Shown here one piece after another: positions 19,954-40,645 of a stretch of 50,066 nucleotides of DNA. Source of the DNA: Escherichia phage EF3-1. Location of the stretch: the sequence record PQ571291; one strand, given 5' to 3'. Position numbers and translations under genes: made by a program. Each line of letters begins with the position of its first letter. Positions within the stretch are counted from its first letter, which is position 1. The notes below the pieces were generated by a model. That model was not told the DNA's origin. It ran no database searches and saw nothing but the letters and a program-made list of their open reading frames with translations.

Positions 19954-19995
19954 AGCACTTTTTGCTAAAAACGTTTACTGTATGCCGTGTATTAT
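19954..19995 (+). promoter_or_regulatory. early-promoter cassette for helicase operon
   Basis: AGCAC-TTT-TTGCTA (19954-19967), 22-bp spacer, TG + TATTAT (19990-19995). Confidence 0.5.
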
Positions 19996-20033
19996 ATCGT
20001 AAACGATACAACGATTCAAAGGATTAAATAGCC

Positions 20034-22052
20034 GTGACAATTAACATCAAAAAGCAAATCGCATTACTTGGCGAGGACTATATAAAACGCACTCAAGAAC
20101 GATTCACTGTTGGTGAGGTAGTTCCGTATCCGTACCAGGTTGTTGCTTATGCTGAGATCGCAAAACGCCTATCAAATTATGAGCATCCATTCTTTGTTAA
20201 AGCGTCAGTATCGGCGGGTAAGACCATCATTTTTGCTATGGTTGCAAAGCAGTGTCAAAAAATGGGCTTGAAAATGCTTGTGCTGGCACGCCAGGGTGAG
20301 ATTGTCGATCAGGATAGTGAAGAGATCGACAATTTCGGAGTGACTAACTCTATATTCTCAGCGTCACTTGGAATCAAGTCTTGCTACTTCCCGATCGTGG
20401 TAGGCTCTGAGGGCACTGTTGCAAATGGTTTAAATAATGAGTTGGCTGATTTTGTCCCTCACGTAATCGGGATAGATGAATGTCACCAGGTGGATTGGGA
20501 AGACCTTGCGCAAGCCATAGACGGAAAGGAAACAATGGAACAGATGCGGGGAGAGAAAGGGAAAATTATCATGGACGGTGATACTCCTCTGATTGGTAAT
20601 GATGGAAAGCCTCTTCTTGGAACTAAGCGCAGTCAGTACACGATCGTAATCATGGAAATGATGCGACGCTGTAAAGAGGTTCACGGTCACGACCTTAGAA
20701 TATTTGGTATGACTGGATCTGAATTTAGGGGTGTAGTTCCTATTCTTGTTGAGAATCCAAAGACGTTAGGCTTCTGGCGTGAGCGCGTTACTGATATAGA
20801 CACCAACTACCTTATTGAGTTTGGCTCAGTCGTTCCGACTATATTCGGCTCGACGGACGGAGTTCACTACGATCTTGATAAATTTAAGGCATCAAGCGAG
20901 GATGGGGTACAGGACTTCACAGAGAAAGATATGAAGGCAATGGAAGATGAGATCCTTCATGATAAATCTCTTACCCAGCGAATCATGCAAATGGTCGCCA
21001 AAAAGGCTGAAGAGCGTAACGCAGTTCTGATTACATGCGCCGGGGTGCGTCACTGCAAAGAGGCGGCGGCGGCACTACCACCAGGGAGCACATATGCAAT
21101 TATTACTGGTGACACAGACACTAAAACGCGCAAGAAGATTCTTGATGATGTGAGGGCCGGGAAAATTAAATATACCTTTCAGGTCATGGCGCTAACTACT
21201 GGCGTTAACGTTCCAAATTGGGATTTTAGTGTAATACTTCGCAAGATAGGATCTCTTACCTTGCTGATTCAGCTTTTGGGTAGGGGTATGCGACTTCTTA
21301 AATCCTGGCAGGTTGCTGAAGGAATGGTTAAGCAAGATCATCTGGTATGGGATTTTGCTGGTACGATGGACGAGTTGGGGCAGCTTTATTTTGACCCTAT
21401 ACTTGAGCAGGCTCAGTTTCAGAAGCGATTCGAGAACGGAAAAGACCCGAAAACGTGTCCTAAATGTGGTTGCGTAAATAGCTTCTATGCTCGCCGATGC
21501 GTTAACGTTATAGACGGTGAACGCTGCGATCATTTCTGGACTTCTCAGATTTGCGAGGACCAAGTTGATGAACGTACCGGGAAAATTCTTGTTAAAGGGT
21601 GCGGTGCCGAGAATGACGTTGTAGCCCGAGTCTGTCGCTGTTGCGATGTTTCTCTTGTCGATCCTAACCTTAAGTTATCCGGTAAGGCGTACACTAAGAA
21701 TGACTGGTACGAGGTAAAGAATTTTGAAGTTACGTTAACCAAAAACCAAAAAGGTGTGATATACAAATACACGCTTATTAACGATGAGGGTGATGAGTTT
21801 AAGGCGTATGAAAAGTTCTTCCCTGAGTCAGACTCTAAGATCTGCGGTACGCTATGGAAAACGAAAGGAGTATTACCTCACGTGTCAGATCCTAAAATGC
21901 GTCGCTACTTTATCGGAATGAAGAACGCTATCAAGATCGTGCAATACTCTCATCATATAGCGCATCCGGTACGTGTTACTCATAGACGCAACCAGAAGAA
22001 AGAAGATATTATTTCACGCAAAGACTTCGGTATGGAGGATATCCCGGAATGA
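20034..22052 (+). CDS. SF2 DEAH-box DNA helicase (672 aa)
   Basis: Walker A SAGKT, DECH box (GIDECHQV), motif VI QLLGRGMR; C-terminal Cys-rich zinc-ribbon-like region; GTG start. Confidence 0.75.
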   Translation: MTINIKKQIALLGEDYIKRTQERFTVGEVVPYPYQVVAYAEIAKRLSNYEHPFFVKASVSAGKTIIFAMVAKQCQKMGLKMLVLARQGEIVDQDSEEIDNFGVTNSIFSASLGIKSCYFPIVVGSEGTVANGLNNELADFVPHVIGIDECHQVDWEDLAQAIDGKETMEQMRGEKGKIIMDGDTPLIGNDGKPLLGTKRSQYTIVIMEMMRRCKEVHGHDLRIFGMTGSEFRGVVPILVENPKTLGFWRERVTDIDTNYLIEFGSVVPTIFGSTDGVHYDLDKFKASSEDGVQDFTEKDMKAMEDEILHDKSLTQRIMQMVAKKAEERNAVLITCAGVRHCKEAAAALPPGSTYAIITGDTDTKTRKKILDDVRAGKIKYTFQVMALTTGVNVPNWDFSVILRKIGSLTLLIQLLGRGMRLLKSWQVAEGMVKQDHLVWDFAGTMDELGQLYFDPILEQAQFQKRFENGKDPKTCPKCGCVNSFYARRCVNVIDGERCDHFWTSQICEDQVDERTGKILVKGCGAENDVVARVCRCCDVSLVDPNLKLSGKAYTKNDWYEVKNFEVTLTKNQKGVIYKYTLINDEGDEFKAYEKFFPESDSKICGTLWKTKGVLPHVSDPKMRRYFIGMKNAIKIVQYSHHIAHPVRVTHRRNQKKEDIISRKDFGMEDIPE

Positions 22053-22465
22053 TTACAGACAAAGGCGATTACTTAGAGTTTTACGAGCGAGATCCTAGCG
22101 ACACGAGAAAGGAGGACGCTCATCAAGTAGATTGCGTGTCCTGGTTGAAATACAATTTTCCTCAGCTTCTATTTTGGCACACAGTTAATGAAGGTGAAAA
22201 AACAATAACGTCGGCGCTAAGGGATGAACAGGCTGGATTACTCAAAGGCGTGTCAGACTTTGTTATTCTGATTGGTATAAACTCACGCTACCCTTTTGCA
22301 GCTATCGAACTAAAGCGGGTTAATAAGTCCGGCAAAGGAAAGGCATCACCAGTCAGCGATAAGCAAAGGGAGTTTCTCAAAAAGGTTCGGGATCGCGGAG
22401 GATTCTCTGCCGTCGCATACGGATTTGAGCAATTCAAGCTGGCAATATACGATTTAACGAAATAG
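22049..22465 (+). CDS. VRR-NUC domain nuclease
   Basis: ATGA-coupled to helicase; HTVNEGEKT...GVSDFVILIG...AIELKR fits VRR-NUC PD-(D/E)XK core. Confidence 0.7.
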   Translation: MITDKGDYLEFYERDPSDTRKEDAHQVDCVSWLKYNFPQLLFWHTVNEGEKTITSALRDEQAGLLKGVSDFVILIGINSRYPFAAIELKRVNKSGKGKASPVSDKQREFLKKVRDRGGFSAVAYGFEQFKLAIYDLTK

Positions 22466-22508
22466 CACTTTTTGTTAAAACTGCCGGAATGGAATCTGGC
22501 ATTATTAT
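22461..22508 (+). promoter_or_regulatory. early-promoter cassette upstream of dam
   Basis: AATAGCACTTTTTGTTAAAAC, inverted repeat GCCGG..CTGGC, ATTATTAT box; roughly 60 bp nearly identical to minus-strand copy at 31626-31669. Confidence 0.5.
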
Positions 22509-22532
22509 CTTACCGAAACGAGAGGATTAAAA

Positions 22533-39272: not shown

Positions 39273-39312
39273 GCCCTTCGTTGAGTTAAGCAACCAATCA
39301 GAGGAATAAATC

Positions 39313-39924
39313 ATGGATAAAATTACCATTTGGGGTCAGACTATAAACCTGTTTCTCGGCACTCGCCGCGTGGCAATCTTTGACTTCGACGGAACACTGA
39401 GTGACGGCTCAAAACGTCTTCACCTGCTACCGACGAAAGATTTGCACTTGACGGAAAGCTGGTCTGAGTTCAACCGCGCGGCAATATTTGACAATCCTAT
39501 CCGTAGTACGATTGATGTGATGAACTCTATGTTTGCCGCTGGGTATCATGTGATCATTTTAACCGGGCGAAGCGATGAGGTTCGTTACGCATCTGAGTTA
39601 TGGCTTAAGCATCACGGCGCGCGATATGATTACTTAGTCATGAGGCCGCATACCGACAACCGCAAAGACACGGTAATGAAAGAAGAGGCGGTGCGAGCGA
39701 TCGGCATTGATAACATTCTGGCGGCCTGGGATGACTCACCGCAAATTATTCCATTATTCCGATCGCTTGGAATAACCACTTACGCTGTAGTTGACTATGG
39801 CGATAACGTTCACGATCATTTAAAATCTCATGGCGTAGATGAGGTTTGCAATCATGAACCATCTGAGCCGCTACCGCCATTTGGCGATAAAATATGCATT
39901 AAGTGCAAGGAGTTATTAAAGTGA
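39313..39924 (+). CDS. HAD-superfamily hydrolase (putative nucleotidase/phosphatase)
   Basis: HAD motif I FDFDGTL, motif II ILTGR, C-terminal acidic motif region. Confidence 0.7.
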   Translation: MDKITIWGQTINLFLGTRRVAIFDFDGTLSDGSKRLHLLPTKDLHLTESWSEFNRAAIFDNPIRSTIDVMNSMFAAGYHVIILTGRSDEVRYASELWLKHHGARYDYLVMRPHTDNRKDTVMKEEAVRAIGIDNILAAWDDSPQIIPLFRSLGITTYAVVDYGDNVHDHLKSHGVDEVCNHEPSEPLPPFGDKICIKCKELLK

Positions 39925-40031
39925 ACCTGTACGAATTTATTGCAGCGCATCCGGTATTAACGGTTATCATCCTGTTAATCATCAATCACACCATCATCAA
40001 TGTGGCAAAATTATTTTTAGGGAGATACTAA
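39921..40031 (+). CDS. small hydrophobic protein (36 aa, GTG start, not in ORF track)
   Basis: GTG overlapping HAD stop with SD AAGGAG 9 nt upstream; TM-like PVLTVIILLIINHTIINV. Confidence 0.4.
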   Translation: MNLYEFIAAHPVLTVIILLIINHTIINVAKLFLGRY

Positions 40032-40032
40032 C

Positions 40033-40605
40033 ATGAAAACAGCTATCGTTTTAAACGGTGCACCAGGCGCAGGAAAAGACACTATCGGATGCATCCTGGC
40101 TGACACTTACGAACATGTAGCGCTACGCAGCTTCAAAGCGCCAATGTTTGAGATTGCCCGAGCAATCCTGGGTGAGGCTAATTTCGAATATTTCATGTTC
40201 TTGTATGAGGACCGTCGCTACAAAGAAGAGCCAGCGTCAATCCTGAACGGTAAAAGCCCACGCCAGTTTATGATCTGGATTAGCGAAGAAGTAATCAAGC
40301 CTCAGTTCGGTAATCGCTTCTTCGGTATGCGAGCAGAAAGCAAGGTGAAAGAGTCGCACTCCCTTTCGGTATTTACTGACGGTGGATTCAAAGATGAGAT
40401 CCTGCAAATGATTGAAGGTGATATCCAGGTCAAGCTATGCCGCATCCATCGCAATGGTTGCAACTTCGATAATGACAGTCGAGACTATATCTACCTTGAT
40501 GATATGATCGGAGTTAACGGTTATCAGGAGTGTGATTTCTTCTCTGTTGAGGGTCATCCTGAAATTACCGCTCAGCACATAGCCGCCACGTTCATCAATA
40601 AATAG
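40033..40605 (+). CDS. deoxynucleoside monophosphate kinase-like P-loop kinase
   Basis: Walker A LNGAPGAGKDT and NGKSP motif resembling T4 gp1 dNMP kinase; SD GGGAGA. Confidence 0.65.
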   Translation: MKTAIVLNGAPGAGKDTIGCILADTYEHVALRSFKAPMFEIARAILGEANFEYFMFLYEDRRYKEEPASILNGKSPRQFMIWISEEVIKPQFGNRFFGMRAESKVKESHSLSVFTDGGFKDEILQMIEGDIQVKLCRIHRNGCNFDNDSRDYIYLDDMIGVNGYQECDFFSVEGHPEITAQHIAATFINK

Positions 40606-40645
40606 CACGAATTGATAAAACGTCGATGGGGTGATTTGATATAGT
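40601..40645 (+). promoter_or_regulatory. early-promoter cassette
   Basis: AATAGCAC-GAA-TTGATAAAAC, 22-bp spacer, TG-a-TATAGT (40640-40645), leader TACCTCATCGACAACGAAGAGAG. Confidence 0.55.

Follow-up and report, generated by a model that had tools for sequence, protein, structure and literature searches.

Gene-boundary cassettes of a T1-like phage match the MarA/SoxS/Rob binding site and suggest that host regulators serve its early genes

A repeat located at gene boundaries has been published for phage TLS and was also reported in T1, Rtp and Rogue1; its function was given as an open question by the authors, who found only three σ70 promoters and raised both a stoperator analogy and the idea of an UP element (PMC11447400). 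A literature search found no start-site map, binding assay or rob/marA/soxS-mutant test of the phage. In E. coli, the AraC-type activators of the MarA/SoxS/Rob family, to which RamA is added in Klebsiella, bind as one monomer to an asymmetric site, the marbox. Forward marboxes lie at about -41/-41.5 and, in class II promoters, occur without a -35 element, according to the literature. In E. coli K-12 the micF promoter reads ACAGCACTGAATGTCAAAAC, 18 nt, TAGAAT, and the nfo promoter ATCGCATAAACCACTACATC, 18 nt, TATCAT, while in fumC a perfect box is followed by approximately 19 nt. The class I arrangement is found in mar (GATTTAGCAAAACGTGGCAT, 16 nt, TTGACT, 17 nt, TATTAT), and a spacer of 15 bp is described for fpr. 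The phage repeat itself is already known; what is new here is its identification with the marbox.

The DNA analysed, a stretch of 50,066 nucleotides from the T1-like (Drexlerviridae) Escherichia phage EF3-1 (PQ571291), hereafter the window, holds about 27 copies of the box ATAGCACnnnTTGYTAAAAC. Searching it with AGCACNNNTTGYTAAAAC and up to two mismatches returned 21 matches against 0.15 expected, as many as in none of 100 shuffles, which confirms the repeated motif described in the initial annotation; the cassette is a genuine regulatory unit, tied to gene boundaries and strongly non-random. Nineteen cassettes are complete: exactly 18 bp separate the box from a -10 hexamer, and a stem-loop of variable sequence is also present. 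Counted from TTGYTA the distance to the hexamer is 22 bp in all 19, the invariant spacing previously noticed, and this distance rules out TTG(C/T)TA as a -35 element. The TATAGT-like hexamer is a good -10 box, preceded by TGn in 11 of the 19. A conserved leader, cCATCGAAACGA, is a further part of the cassette; box and -10 box had been recognized before, the leader and the stem-loop had not. The early-region copies are given below; except in the class I-type promoter, box and -10 are 18 bp apart.

19952-19995, plus strand: full cassette, box GTAGCACTTTTTGCTAAAAA, TATTAT; hairpin brackets the -10; 5' of the helicase gene (20034)
22462-22505, plus strand: full cassette, TGgCATTAT; class A spacer hairpin, terminator-like; upstream stop is the box TAG
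23485-23528, plus strand: full cassette; the upstream gene stops at N3=TAA; class A hairpin TACCCGGCgaaaGTCGGGTA abuts TATAGT
23817-23860, plus strand: degenerate extra copy ATAGCACTAATAGCAAAATA, TAGCAT; orthologous T1 copy at 40311
25473-25516, plus strand: full cassette with the most degenerate box, ATCGCACTAATCGCTAAAAA, TATAGT; 5' of the lysis-gene block
29078-29121, minus strand: full cassette, TATCAT
29578-29621, minus strand: full cassette, TGaTAAAGT; hairpin AAGGTCA/TGACCTT brackets the -10
30093-30136, minus strand: full cassette; box TAG replaces TTG; -10 region GTATAT(T)
31209-31252, minus strand: full cassette, TGgTATAGT; edge of a module (31253-33192) absent from T1
31626-31669, minus strand: full cassette; spacer hairpin near-identical to that of the 22462 copy
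32090-32133, minus strand: full cassette, TGgCATAAT; upstream stop is the TAA of TTGTTAA
33063-33106, minus strand: degenerate cassette ATAGCATTTTTTGCAACACA, TATGAT; heads the minus-strand early block, first gene start 33030
33292-33355, plus strand: class I-type promoter leading the plus-strand early block; box TTTTTAGCAAAACGTGCTAT 33292-33311 in backward orientation, 15 bp, -35 TTGTCA 33327-33332, 17 bp, -10 TAGAAT 33350-33355
34245-34288, plus strand: full cassette, class A spacer hairpin, TATTAT, U-rich tail
34982-35025, plus strand: full cassette, TGcTATAGT; upstream stop is the box TAG
36040-36083, plus strand: full cassette; hairpin GGGGTT/AACCCC brackets TATAGT
36601-36644, plus strand: full cassette, TGgTACAAT
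37327-37370, plus strand: full cassette, TGaTATAGT; hairpin AAGGCCA/TGGCCTT
38709-38752, plus strand: full cassette, TATGAT without TG; hairpin AGGGGAAT/ATTCCCCT
39229-39272, plus strand: full cassette, TGaTAGAAT; 5' of the polynucleotide kinase/phosphatase gene
40602-40645, plus strand: full cassette, TGaTATAGT; its hairpin, with 3 sense-strand G-U pairs and a dG of -23 kcal/mol, is the longest

Relative to T1, homology breaks at the cassettes 25473-25516 (plus strand) and 29078-29121 (minus strand), at the second of which an HNH gene is inserted, and restarts at 34982-35025 (plus strand).

All copies listed in the initial annotation were recovered (12 of 12 on the plus strand, seven of seven on the minus strand, where its coordinates are the positions of the -10 boxes, and seven of seven termed motif-only), although two degenerate ones, at 19484-19503 (minus) and 23817-23860 (plus), had been missed. 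The copy near 33063, regarded as full, keeps the 18-bp gap but has a degenerate box. The upstream gene takes its stop codon from the box TAG in six cases and from the TAA inside TTGYTAA in three to four, the two frames noted earlier, and from a third in-box TAA, in the N3=TAA variant, in two; the remaining stop codons lie 2-20 nt 5' of the box. Downstream, the start codon falls at +68 to +82 counted from the A of AGCAC. As had been observed, box orientation tracks gene direction in both early blocks. The palindrome TAGCA-N5-TGCTA, on the other hand, was rejected as a feature of the motif and is incidental: half of the copies read TGTTA, which breaks the core palindrome, the invariant flanking bases are asymmetric and the box is strictly orientation-locked.

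The box matches the MarA/SoxS/Rob binding site in sequence, orientation and spacing. Across 59 cassettes from four genomes, it fits the E. coli marbox consensus AYnGCACnnWnnRYYAAAYn at 13 of 14 specified positions, each met in 93-100% of copies, and the phage boxes vary at those positions where the consensus is itself degenerate (8, 9, W10, with A in 29 and T in 30 copies, Y14 and 20); the sole misfit, an A at position 19, is also found in the micF box. An independent host pattern, gcannwwntgnnaaa, derived from MarA ChIP-seq (PMC12052159), matches the window perfectly at 20 sites, where 0.99 would be expected; T1, a Klebsiella Webervirus and a Braunvirinae phage have 20, 18 and 13, each against about 0.9, while a non-Drexlerviridae Klebsiella phage and a Vibrio myovirus have none and one. 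The cassette reproduces the class II architecture of micF and nfo, that is, a forward box, 18 bp and a -10 without a -35, the -35 position being occupied by TAAAAC (two of six matches). The backward copy, TTTTTAGCAAAACGTGCTAT, 15 nt, TTGTCA, 17 nt, TAGAAT, has its class I counterpart in mar, and T1 has the same 15/17 spacing at its class I-type promoter, with diverged sequence. Promoters with two canonical hexamers number 29 in the early region, where 38.8 would be expected, and thus show no enrichment, in agreement with the only three σ70 promoters found in TLS (PMC11447400). A six-frame phmmer search of the window found no MarA-like protein (best E = 1.1), and none of the 20 early ORFs examined has an AraC/HTH_18 domain.

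On these grounds it is probable that the cassettes are composite promoter/stem-loop units with promoters dependent on a MarA/SoxS/Rob(RamA)-type activator, whose binding and activating role we infer from the sequence. Each would form a compact transcription-unit boundary: the forward box, its centre approximately 41 bp 5' of the start site, overlaps the would-be -35 and ends 18 bp before the -10, so placed that the activator could substitute for -35 recognition and recruit σ70 RNA polymerase via sigma region 4 and the alpha-CTD. The predicted start is a conserved A, 7 nt past the -10, followed by a predicted leader of 20-34 nt, AUCGAAACGA..., and then the Shine-Dalgarno. The backward copy, 15 bp 5' of a good -35/-10 pair, would be a marRAB/fpr-like class I promoter for the plus-strand early block, at whose head it stands. 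At time zero the likeliest partner would be Rob, the paralogue that is made constitutively, with MarA, SoxS and RamA adding a stress-dependent boost. It counts against a host activator that unstressed cells contain little MarA or SoxS and that a large part of Rob is kept inactive, although T1 multiplies very rapidly in plain broth.

The need for an activator can also be questioned, since the TGn of eleven cassettes may confer substantial activity by itself. The cassettes would then be extended -10 promoters for σ70 RNA polymerase alone, and the box an upstream element read by the polymerase through an UP-like alpha-CTD contact or DNA curvature; the A/T-rich 3' end (TAAAAC) and N3 block (TTT/GAA/TAA) of the box agree with this, as does the UP-element proposal made for TLS (PMC11447400). 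This explanation is improbable: a strict pattern with invariant G/C positions (GCAC, G13) does not resemble UP elements, the box extends from -50 to -31, and so over the -35 position, instead of covering -40 to -60, and it is left unexplained why the marbox fit is near-perfect, why there is a backward class I copy and why some copies have no promoter. TGn is missing from eight cassettes, and six of the 19 have neither TG nor -35 and therefore need an activator.

Further copies lie in the late region, where six or seven are found 3' of late -10 boxes or beside terminators, so that the dedicated phage code for early genes initially suggested is not confined to these genes; the code itself is better read as the host marbox, in class II geometry plus one class I copy.

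2954-2997, minus strand: full cassette with TGaTAAGAT 18 bp from the box; directed into the major tail gene and antisense to it (its copy, near 2979, had been taken for motif-only)
6919-6960, plus strand: marbox-like box ATAGCACTTCATGACAAAAG; TAG is the stop codon of gene 6569-6922; intrinsic terminator directly 3'
9147-9186, plus strand: late -10 TATAAT (9147-9152), 14 nt, box ATAGCACAAAAAGGTAAACA (9167-9186), which abuts the start (9189) of a 1150-aa tail gene
18410-18429, plus strand: box, backward with respect to the tail-fibre gene on the minus strand (start 18389), 3 nt 3' of the -10 in a TTGCAA-17-TAAAAT promoter
19484-19503, minus strand: degenerate box ATAGCATTTTTAGTTAAAAC where the gp23-like gene ends, then an intrinsic terminator
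19487-19945, minus strand: gp23-like gene; its product, a candidate box binder, is a conserved HTH protein of Cro/YdaS type (in T1, gp23, 'transcriptional regulator')
42433-42452, plus strand: box ATAGCACTAAATGTTAAACA, 8 nt past the late -10 box TGTAATAT; abuts the Shine-Dalgarno of the small-terminase gene (42443)
49114-49157, minus strand: box, 18 bp and weak -10, TGtTATGAC, antisense

Read on the plus strand, the 2954-2997 box lies directly 5' of the Shine-Dalgarno of gene 3019, and the 49114-49157 box directly 5' of a terminator, after which the next gene starts, its ORF passing the window end.

A position 3' of a -10 box is operator-like, and the box could be the operator of a phage regulator, most plausibly the gp23-like protein, which would bind all cassettes, shut off or activate early/middle promoters and autoregulate via the copy in its own leader; the marbox likeness would then have arisen by convergence, or would serve to compete deliberately with host factors. 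For this protein a weak P22_Cro/YdaS HTH match was obtained (E = 7e-5); annotations of T1 and relatives call it a transcriptional regulator, and it is conserved across 824 phage records, whose host spectrum is that of the box. Its gene promoter (TTGAAT, reverse complement of 20014-20019; 17 bp; TATAAT, reverse complement of 19991-19996) stands face-to-face with the neighbouring helicase cassette, whose box falls within the 5' UTR of the gp23-like gene. The phage box is moreover near-invariant, fixed also at A3, T11 and T12, which are free in the classical consensus, whereas host marboxes are degenerate; this could point to a different or additional reader, and the stoperator analogy of the TLS authors fits as well (PMC11447400). 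We nevertheless regard such an operator as unlikely. A single Cro-type HTH normally reads a dyad, and the asymmetric, orientation-locked box is not one, its flanks and half of its cores breaking the symmetry; the predicted recognition helix varies by subfamily (SNQTVQGW, SIQVVQQW, TPQAVEEW) in genomes where the box is invariant. A phage-made activator would be unable to serve the first promoters, yet the box is on nearly all promoters of both early blocks, including the six without -35 and TG, and the consensus match (approximately 21 bits), the class II gap of 18 bp and, separately, the class I layout would all have to be coincidental. The two regulators can coexist, with a host activator acting early and a phage competitor later.

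The stem-loops lie in the spacer or bracket the -10. Their mean dG is -12.9 kcal/mol (mean z -3.1), the sense RNA is stabler than the antisense in 49 of 64 segments, and in the dominant register five of seven pairs show compensatory changes, with a covariation score, for a subset chosen for pairing, of 0.662 against 0.267 in shuffles (none of 500 as high). This bias and covariation would also suit a processing, termination or stability signal of the upstream mRNA, in repeats kept chiefly for module shuffling and with a secondary promoter role. The T1 and SA12KD annotators labelled the hairpins rho-independent terminators; homology between the window and T1 breaks a few bases from the cassettes at 25475, 29119, 31250, 34984 and 36042 and at most 17 bases from that at 34247, with HNH genes inserted at two of the breaks; and PeSL elements offer a precedent (PMC4122927). 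Such an RNA or recombination unit seems very improbable as the main explanation, because it does not account for the invariant 18-bp gap, the conserved A at +1 or the copies working in either orientation beside late promoters; most hairpins, including most of class B, have no U tract, so that a terminator role is weakly supported, and in the majority of phages mosaic joints coincide with gene boundaries in any case. Under the activator-dependent promoter reading, the stem-loop would form in read-through RNA of the upstream gene and nowhere else, most likely acting as a terminator, attenuator or 3'-end stabiliser, and each gene or small gene group would thus be its own unit.

The comparison with T1-like genomes proposed at the outset found the cassettes in close and distant relatives alike (20 copies in T1, 18 in the Webervirus, 13 in the Braunvirinae phage). 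The box is essentially confined to Drexlerviridae, and thus no unrelated phage family gives independent support for a host reader. Taken together, the sequence, orientation and spacing of the box suggest that this phage runs its early genes through the host regulators MarA, SoxS and Rob.

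The window, 50,066 bp long, represents essentially the entire genome of a T1-like phage (Drexlerviridae, Tunavirus-like), with an early region ~90% identical to those of vB_EcoS_SA12KD, IME18 and Sfin-1 and a helicase sharing 99.7% identity with that of phage Chapo. A functional map was derived from the annotated T1 genome and comprises the following regions:

1-18,400 and 42,400-50,066: late structural genes
19,500-29,100: replication, recombination, methylase and lysis genes
29,100-33,030, minus strand: divergent block of small genes of unknown function
33,400-42,400, plus strand: divergent block of small genes of unknown function

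The control region dividing the early blocks (33110-33260, 33395-33460) contains short direct repeats (tgtgattgttgc twice, attccag... twice) and a very A+T-rich alternating tract (atatatgtatatatataatatata...), which is present also in T1 near the start of the record; they could represent an origin, a packaging site or sites for regulators.

A repeated 20-bp box punctuates the gene boundaries of this genome. When searched with up to two mismatches (<=2), AGCACNNNTTGYTAAAAC has 21 occurrences in the window against 0.15 expected, and 0/100 shuffled sequences reach that number, which bears out the regularity noted in the initial annotation; the window consensus of the box is aATAGCACnnnTTGcTAAAAc, and its N3 block reads TTT, GAA or TAA. 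Every coordinate listed in that annotation was recovered, two degenerate copies that had been overlooked were added (19484-19503, minus strand, and 23817-23860, plus strand), and the copy near 2979, taken for a bare motif, turned out to be a full cassette. The 19 full cassettes have an invariant layout, in which the 20-mer (a/t)TAGCACnnnTTG(C/T)TAAAAC is followed after exactly 18 bp by a -10-like hexamer, TAnnnT; the gap is the same in 19/19 and corresponds to the constant 22 bp between TTGYTA and the -10 that had been claimed. The hexamer is directly preceded by TGn in 11 of the 19, and in all 19 the box runs GCAC...AAA in the direction of the -10 and of the gene that follows. The reported agreement between orientation and gene direction holds for both early blocks. 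The start codon of the downstream gene lies at +68 to +82 from the box. As for the upstream gene, its stop codon had been said to be taken from the motif in two frames, and this is the case for the TAG of the box itself (six cassettes) and the TAA of TTGYTAA (three or four); a third route, the TAA of the N3=TAA variant, is used in two, and in the remaining cassettes the stop lies 2-20 nt before the box. Across four genomes, an A is conserved 7 nt past the -10 in 53/59 cassettes; it is the predicted transcription start, which in a promoter of this kind would fall 6-8 nt beyond the -10. The discriminator is G+C-rich; the predicted transcript leader (+1 to +30) is conserved across subfamilies, with ttaCCcCATCGAAACGAa following the -10 in the window and in the aligned cassettes of a Klebsiella Webervirus and a Braunvirinae coliphage (alignment A1), and a recurrent ribosome-site context, (a)CCAATCAGGAG, is found in the cassette leaders.

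The repeat itself is already known, and its function is open in the literature. The re-annotation of phage TLS (German, Kropinski, Misra et al. 2024, PMC11447400) described a 21-nt direct repeat with the consensus aaATAGCACnnnTTGnTAAAA. Its 21 copies, of which 18 are intergenic, follow the direction of transcription and stand ~76 nt ahead of start codons; sub-groups A, T and G were set by the central triplet NNN (AAA/TTT/GAA), and similar repeats were stated for T1, Rtp and Rogue1. The same authors found only three sigma-70 promoters and left the function of the repeat unanswered, floating a stoperator, an enhancer site or a UP element. The window carries the same element, since consensus, intergenic site, orientation, start-codon distance and NNN sub-groups all match; the TLS paper draws no link between the box and a fixed -10, a hairpin or a marbox. 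A literature search for a link of the marbox, MarA, SoxS or Rob with T1-like phages returned nothing relevant, and a search for start-site mapping or RNA-seq/time-course transcriptomes of T1-like phages found none.

The -35 position of the cassettes is occupied by TAAAAC, which has 2/6 matches to TTGACA, and a two-hexamer sigma-70 scan of 22,000-41,900 gave 29 sites against 38.8 in shuffled sequence without picking up any cassette; the cassettes therefore appear to be promoters lacking a -35, some of them with an extended -10. TTGYTA was ruled out as a -35 element, given its distance of 22 bp to the -10. The conserved box spans about -50 to -31 of the cassette promoters. For the marbox, to which the AraC-family activators MarA, SoxS and Rob bind as monomers, the classical consensus was reportedly given by Martin et al. 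in 1999 as AYnGCACnnWnnRYYAAAYn. Among 59 cassettes of four genomes, 93-100% agree with it at 13 of its 14 specified positions, and the phage box varies where this consensus is degenerate: at position 10 (W) there are 29 copies with A and 30 with T, and at position 14 (Y) 93% have C or T. The sole misfit, an A at position 19, is common to micF. The marbox elements GCAC and CAAA/YAAA have been confirmed (PMC9638938), and a MarA pattern derived from ChIP-seq, gcannwwntgnnaaa, is available (PMC12052159).

Perfect matches to the ChIP-seq-derived MarA pattern in the window and in other phage genomes
Window: 20 (expected 0.99)
T1: 20 (expected about 0.9)
Klebsiella Webervirus: 18 (expected 0.86)
Braunvirinae coliphage: 13 (expected 0.98)
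Non-Drexlerviridae Klebsiella phage: 0
Vibrio myovirus: 1 (a weak control, having the helicase alone in common)

The comparison with T1-like relatives put forward in the initial annotation as a check thus finds the motif abundant in T1, the Webervirus and the Braunvirinae coliphage. From this agreement and from the promoter architecture, the box is probably a marbox. MarA and SoxS are scarce in unstressed cells, much of the Rob present is reported to be inactive, and T1 grows fast in plain broth, all of which counts against this reading, as does the invariance of the phage box, in which A3, T11 and T12 are fixed, beyond that of the host boxes.

Class II marbox promoters carry a forward box that overlaps the -35 and is centred at about -41/-41.5 (for the definition of orientation, PMC12052159, PMC10268841); they have no recognisable -35, and the activator moves sigma region 4 off the -35 and contacts both sigma region 4 and the alpha-CTD. 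As read from E. coli K-12, the micF promoter consists of ACAGCACTGAATGTCAAAAC, 18 nt, TAGAAT, 7 nt and +1, the nfo promoter of ATCGCATAAACCACTACATC, 18 nt and TATCAT, and the fumC promoter of a perfect box followed by about 19 nt. The cassettes share with such MarA/SoxS/Rob/RamA-dependent promoters of Enterobacteriaceae (micF, nfo, fumC; cryo-EM complexes on micF) a forward 20-bp box with GCAC and YAAA, which covers the -35 position and is centred at about -41, and the lack of a usable -35; with micF and nfo they also have the 18-bp gap in common. The phage boxes differ in being far less degenerate and in amounting to about 20 copies per 50 kb, and, unlike host class II promoters, each cassette is fused to a stem-loop and a preceding stop codon and has a conserved leader; the class II assignment predicts binding of a host protein from sequence and geometry. 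A MarA/SoxS/Rob-type host activator would, in this mechanism, drive the marbox cassettes as class II promoters lacking a -35, and we lean towards it.

The copy at 33292-33311 conforms to a second, independent architectural rule of marbox promoters: the box faces backward with respect to the plus-strand early block, and after it come 15 nt, TTGTCA, 17 nt and TAGAAT (33292-33355). TTGTCA-17-TAGAAT is among the best canonical promoters of the region in the two-hexamer scan. In the E. coli marRAB promoter the order is GATTTAGCAAAACGTGGCAT, 16 nt, TTGACT, 17 nt, TATTAT, and 14 consecutive bases (TTTAGCAAAACGTG) are identical between its box and that of the phage. In fpr, the reversed box is situated 15 bp upstream of the -35 (PMC9638938), a promoter type termed class III in the naming of Shi et al. 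2022. A backward box, 15-16 bp to a good -35 and a 17-bp spacer to the -10 are common to marRAB, fpr and this putative promoter of class I layout, which occurs once per phage genome; T1 retains the 15/17 spacing, with the intervening sequence diverged. In the Klebsiella Webervirus (phage KLPN2) the backward copy (~32895) was ruled out as a class I promoter, being placed within a TTGACC-16-TATTCT spacer just upstream of a gene start (32880-32960), a position that would suit repression rather than activation.

A phage-encoded MarA/AraC homologue was rejected: phmmer at maximum sensitivity (--max) with E. coli MarA against the six-frame translation of the window returned nothing (best E = 1.1), and Pfam found no AraC-type domain in 20 early ORFs, nor any MotA or AsiA homologue or enhancer-binding ATPase. 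Six cassettes lack both a -35 and the TG and should therefore need an activator. For the cassettes as a whole, we regard it as quite improbable that polymerase serves the promoters by itself, with no activator involved, and a UP element is unlikely on account of where the box lies and of its G/C positions, which are invariant. Nearly all promoters of both early blocks bear the box, and the activator must therefore exist at the moment of infection; as it would be required from the start and no MarA was found in the phage, a host protein is the economical reading.

The rival candidate from the phage itself is a gp23-like protein of 152 aa with a single Cro/YdaS-type HTH (gene at 19487-19945, minus strand), whose T1 counterpart gp23 is annotated as 'transcriptional regulator' and which might bind the box, for example to shut the early promoters off. 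At 19952-20030, the -10 of the helicase cassette (TATTAT, 19990-19995, plus strand) overlaps the -10 of a canonical minus-strand TTGAAT-17-TATAAT promoter that is predicted to drive this gene, so that the two promoters stand face-to-face and the box is placed in the leader (5' UTR) of the gp23-like transcript; the protein is also conserved in 824 phage records, with a distribution resembling that of the box. As primary reader, however, it would face a box that is asymmetric and orientation-locked, and whose dyad is disrupted both by invariant flanking bases and, in half of the copies, within the core; its predicted recognition helix varies between subfamilies whose DNA boxes are identical, and an activator made by the phage could not serve the promoters transcribed first. 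A PDB sequence search with the protein gave noise only. Reading of the box by a phage protein of this kind is unlikely in our estimate, and if it did occur, the near-perfect likeness of the box to a host site would have to be accounted for all the same; the host-activator and gp23-like readings are nevertheless compatible with each other.

The palindrome TAGCA-N5-TGCTA was rejected as a dimer operator in the primary logic of the box. It is perfect in only 7 copies, about half carry TGTTA, the invariant flanks C7/T11 and A1/A16 are asymmetric, and the left side has no counterpart to the conserved AAAAC tail, which sets the element apart from dyad-symmetric Cro/CI-type operators. A sigma-54 (-24/-12) promoter, TGGCAC-N5-TTGCW, was rejected as well: TAGCAC-N3-TTGYT has AG for GG in 58/59 cassettes and is 2 bp too short for the GG-GC gap, which must be exactly 10 bp; downstream there is a fixed sigma-70 -10. 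The GAA variant of the box was found in 1,015 records, nearly all of them 44-54-kb genomes from Enterobacteriaceae hosts. Presence in unrelated phage families would have spoken for a host reader, but beyond Drexlerviridae-sized genomes the box gave only isolated hits, each with one mismatch, in large myoviruses (records of 131-199 kb), so that its spread is uninformative on this point. About 20 records of ~50 kb named as Campylobacter phages (e.g. MG065657 C4, MG065675 A118, MG065667 A127) have a box, a helicase and a gp23-like gene of the T1-like coliphage type, and their host assignment looks doubtful.

The 44 nt following the box fold with a mean dG of -12.9 kcal/mol (mean z -3.1 vs shuffles), and two hairpin arrangements can be distinguished. 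Class A hairpins are located within the 18-bp spacer and abut the -10, whose U/A-rich region then serves as a tail; three of them (22482, 23504, 34263) are picked up by a simple terminator scan, the -10 region supplying their U-rich tails. Class B hairpins bracket the -10, with the 3' arm extending into the discriminator/start site, and the sequence after them is CATCGAAACGA, in which a U tract is lacking. From copy to copy the stem sequences vary with pairing retained. In the dominant register, among 14 distinct cassettes, 95.9% of cells pair, a percentage inflated by the choice of this subset for pairing, and 5/7 pairs show double-sided changes, compensatory changes not being inflated in this way; the covariation score was 0.662 vs 0.267 in shuffles (0/500 as high), and in slid registers only 37-54% of cells pair. 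The sense-strand RNA fold is more stable than the antisense in 49/64 segments (mean difference 2.7 kcal/mol), owing to a build-up of G-U pairs in sense RNA. The transcript of the cassette itself would start inside or after the 3' arm, and the hairpin would therefore form only in readthrough RNA from upstream, in which we infer a role as terminator, attenuator or 3'-end protection. The annotators of T1 and SA12KD labelled these hairpins as rho-independent terminators.

Six breaks in high identity between the window and T1 (25475, 29119, 31250, 34247, 34984, 36042) fall within 3-17 nt of cassettes, which are at gene boundaries in any case. At two of those joints HNH endonuclease genes are inserted in T1 (42028-42510 and 46085-46624 of its record), and the corresponding window sites, 25467/25509 and 29122/29127, have no HNH gene; conversely, the window contains a 1.9-kb module (31253-33192) with a DNA methylase (32117-32821), bounded and subdivided by cassettes, that T1 is without. 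A mainly RNA or recombination role for the repeat, to which the hairpins and these joints could be related, is nonetheless given very little weight here. T4-type phages have composite promoter/terminator stem-loops, the PeSLs, which have been implicated in modular shuffling (Arbiol et al. 2010; Comeau et al. 2014). The cassettes are similarly small promoter/stem-loop units repeated between small early genes and may be linked to indels or module exchange between close relatives; they differ from PeSLs, whose promoters are near-consensus -35/-10 sigma-70 (or Mot-box) promoters, in having a marbox in the place of the -35, in belonging to another phage family, and in having the stem-loop as part of the promoter itself, either within the spacer or surrounding the -10. 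In T4 middle promoters (MotA box and AsiA), as proposed for the cassettes, a conserved box with constant spacing to the -10 stands in for the -35 and lets an activator appropriate the sigma-70 polymerase, but the Mot box is centred at -30 rather than -41 and the activator is phage-encoded. The stoperators of mycobacteriophage L5 are also numerous asymmetric sites in short intergenic spaces, oriented with transcription; in contrast, they are bound by the prophage repressor, block elongation and have no fixed relation to a -10, whereas T1-like phages are virulent.

A dedicated regulatory code for early genes had been suggested for the repeat, and this stands in part, marbox-like copies being present in the late region as well:

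9167-9186: box before the large tail gene, just downstream of a late -10 and next to the Shine-Dalgarno
18410-18429: box before the tail-fibre gene, just downstream of a late -10 and next to the Shine-Dalgarno
42433-42452: box before the small terminase gene, just downstream of a late -10 and next to the Shine-Dalgarno
2978-2997: backward box just before gene 3019; on its own strand, a full cassette antisense into the major tail gene
49138-49157: box like that at 2978-2997, with a weak -10
6919-6938 and 19484-19503: boxes followed by intrinsic terminators

A box over a start site or leader is where a bound protein would repress, and dual use by an activator/repressor would be compatible with this arrangement, although this is speculation. 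The units at 2954-2997 and 49114-49157 (both minus strand) consist of box, 18 bp and -10, are aimed in antisense direction at two highly expressed late genes, the major tail gene and gene 48353-49120, and are conserved in T1 (18847 and 15083, minus strand); they could give rise to early antisense transcripts. A second boundary cassette, on the plus strand of the late region, was also observed (2925-2956, 6939-6972, 9118-9152, 42395-42424), consisting of a strong intrinsic terminator (e.g. CCCGCCTTGCGCGGG and a T run), then 5-12 nt and cTGTAnAAT with no -35, the instances being TGTAAAAT, TGTAGAAT, TGTATAAT and TGTAATAT; three of the four then carry a marbox-like box, and these units look like the late 'transcripton' promoters mentioned for T1.

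What is proposed here, from the sequence, is that marbox promoters are packaged as PeSL-like gene-boundary cassettes in a virulent phage, an explanation that is new for a repeat that was known. In a broader and more tentative reading, which we would not expect to hold in full, the Drexlerviridae may delegate their entire early and middle programme to the host activators of the antibiotic and oxidative stress responses, with Rob, MarA, SoxS or RamA switching on some 20 class II promoters and a single class I promoter in each genome. Boxes over late start sites or leaders (9167, 18410, 42433, 2978) would hold late expression down, two further boxes would head the antisense cassettes pointing into late genes, and replicating genomes would titrate the activator and release the late genes. 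If true, multidrug-resistant E. coli and Klebsiella overproducing MarA, SoxS or RamA would be unusually permissive hosts, as would cells exposed to bile salts, salicylate or redox drugs, and a rob marA soxS (ramA) multiple mutant would be a poor host. The function of the repeat is an open question on T1-like phages (PMC11447400), and a marbox identity gives simple experiments. If the identification is correct, it would explain why promoter predictors detect hardly any promoters in these phages. The cassettes would then constitute compact, insulated, activator-dependent promoter parts and, next to the T4-type PeSLs, a second example of promoter and stem-loop combined in one unit at the edges of exchangeable gene modules. 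The box is present in more than 1,000 sequenced genomes, many of them from phages of Klebsiella and E. coli; a large and therapeutically relevant phage family would then couple its expression to the regulators of efflux-mediated multidrug resistance, and phage-antibiotic interactions are predicted, with infection more successful in mar/ram/sox up-mutants and subject to modulation by inducers such as bile salts or salicylate.
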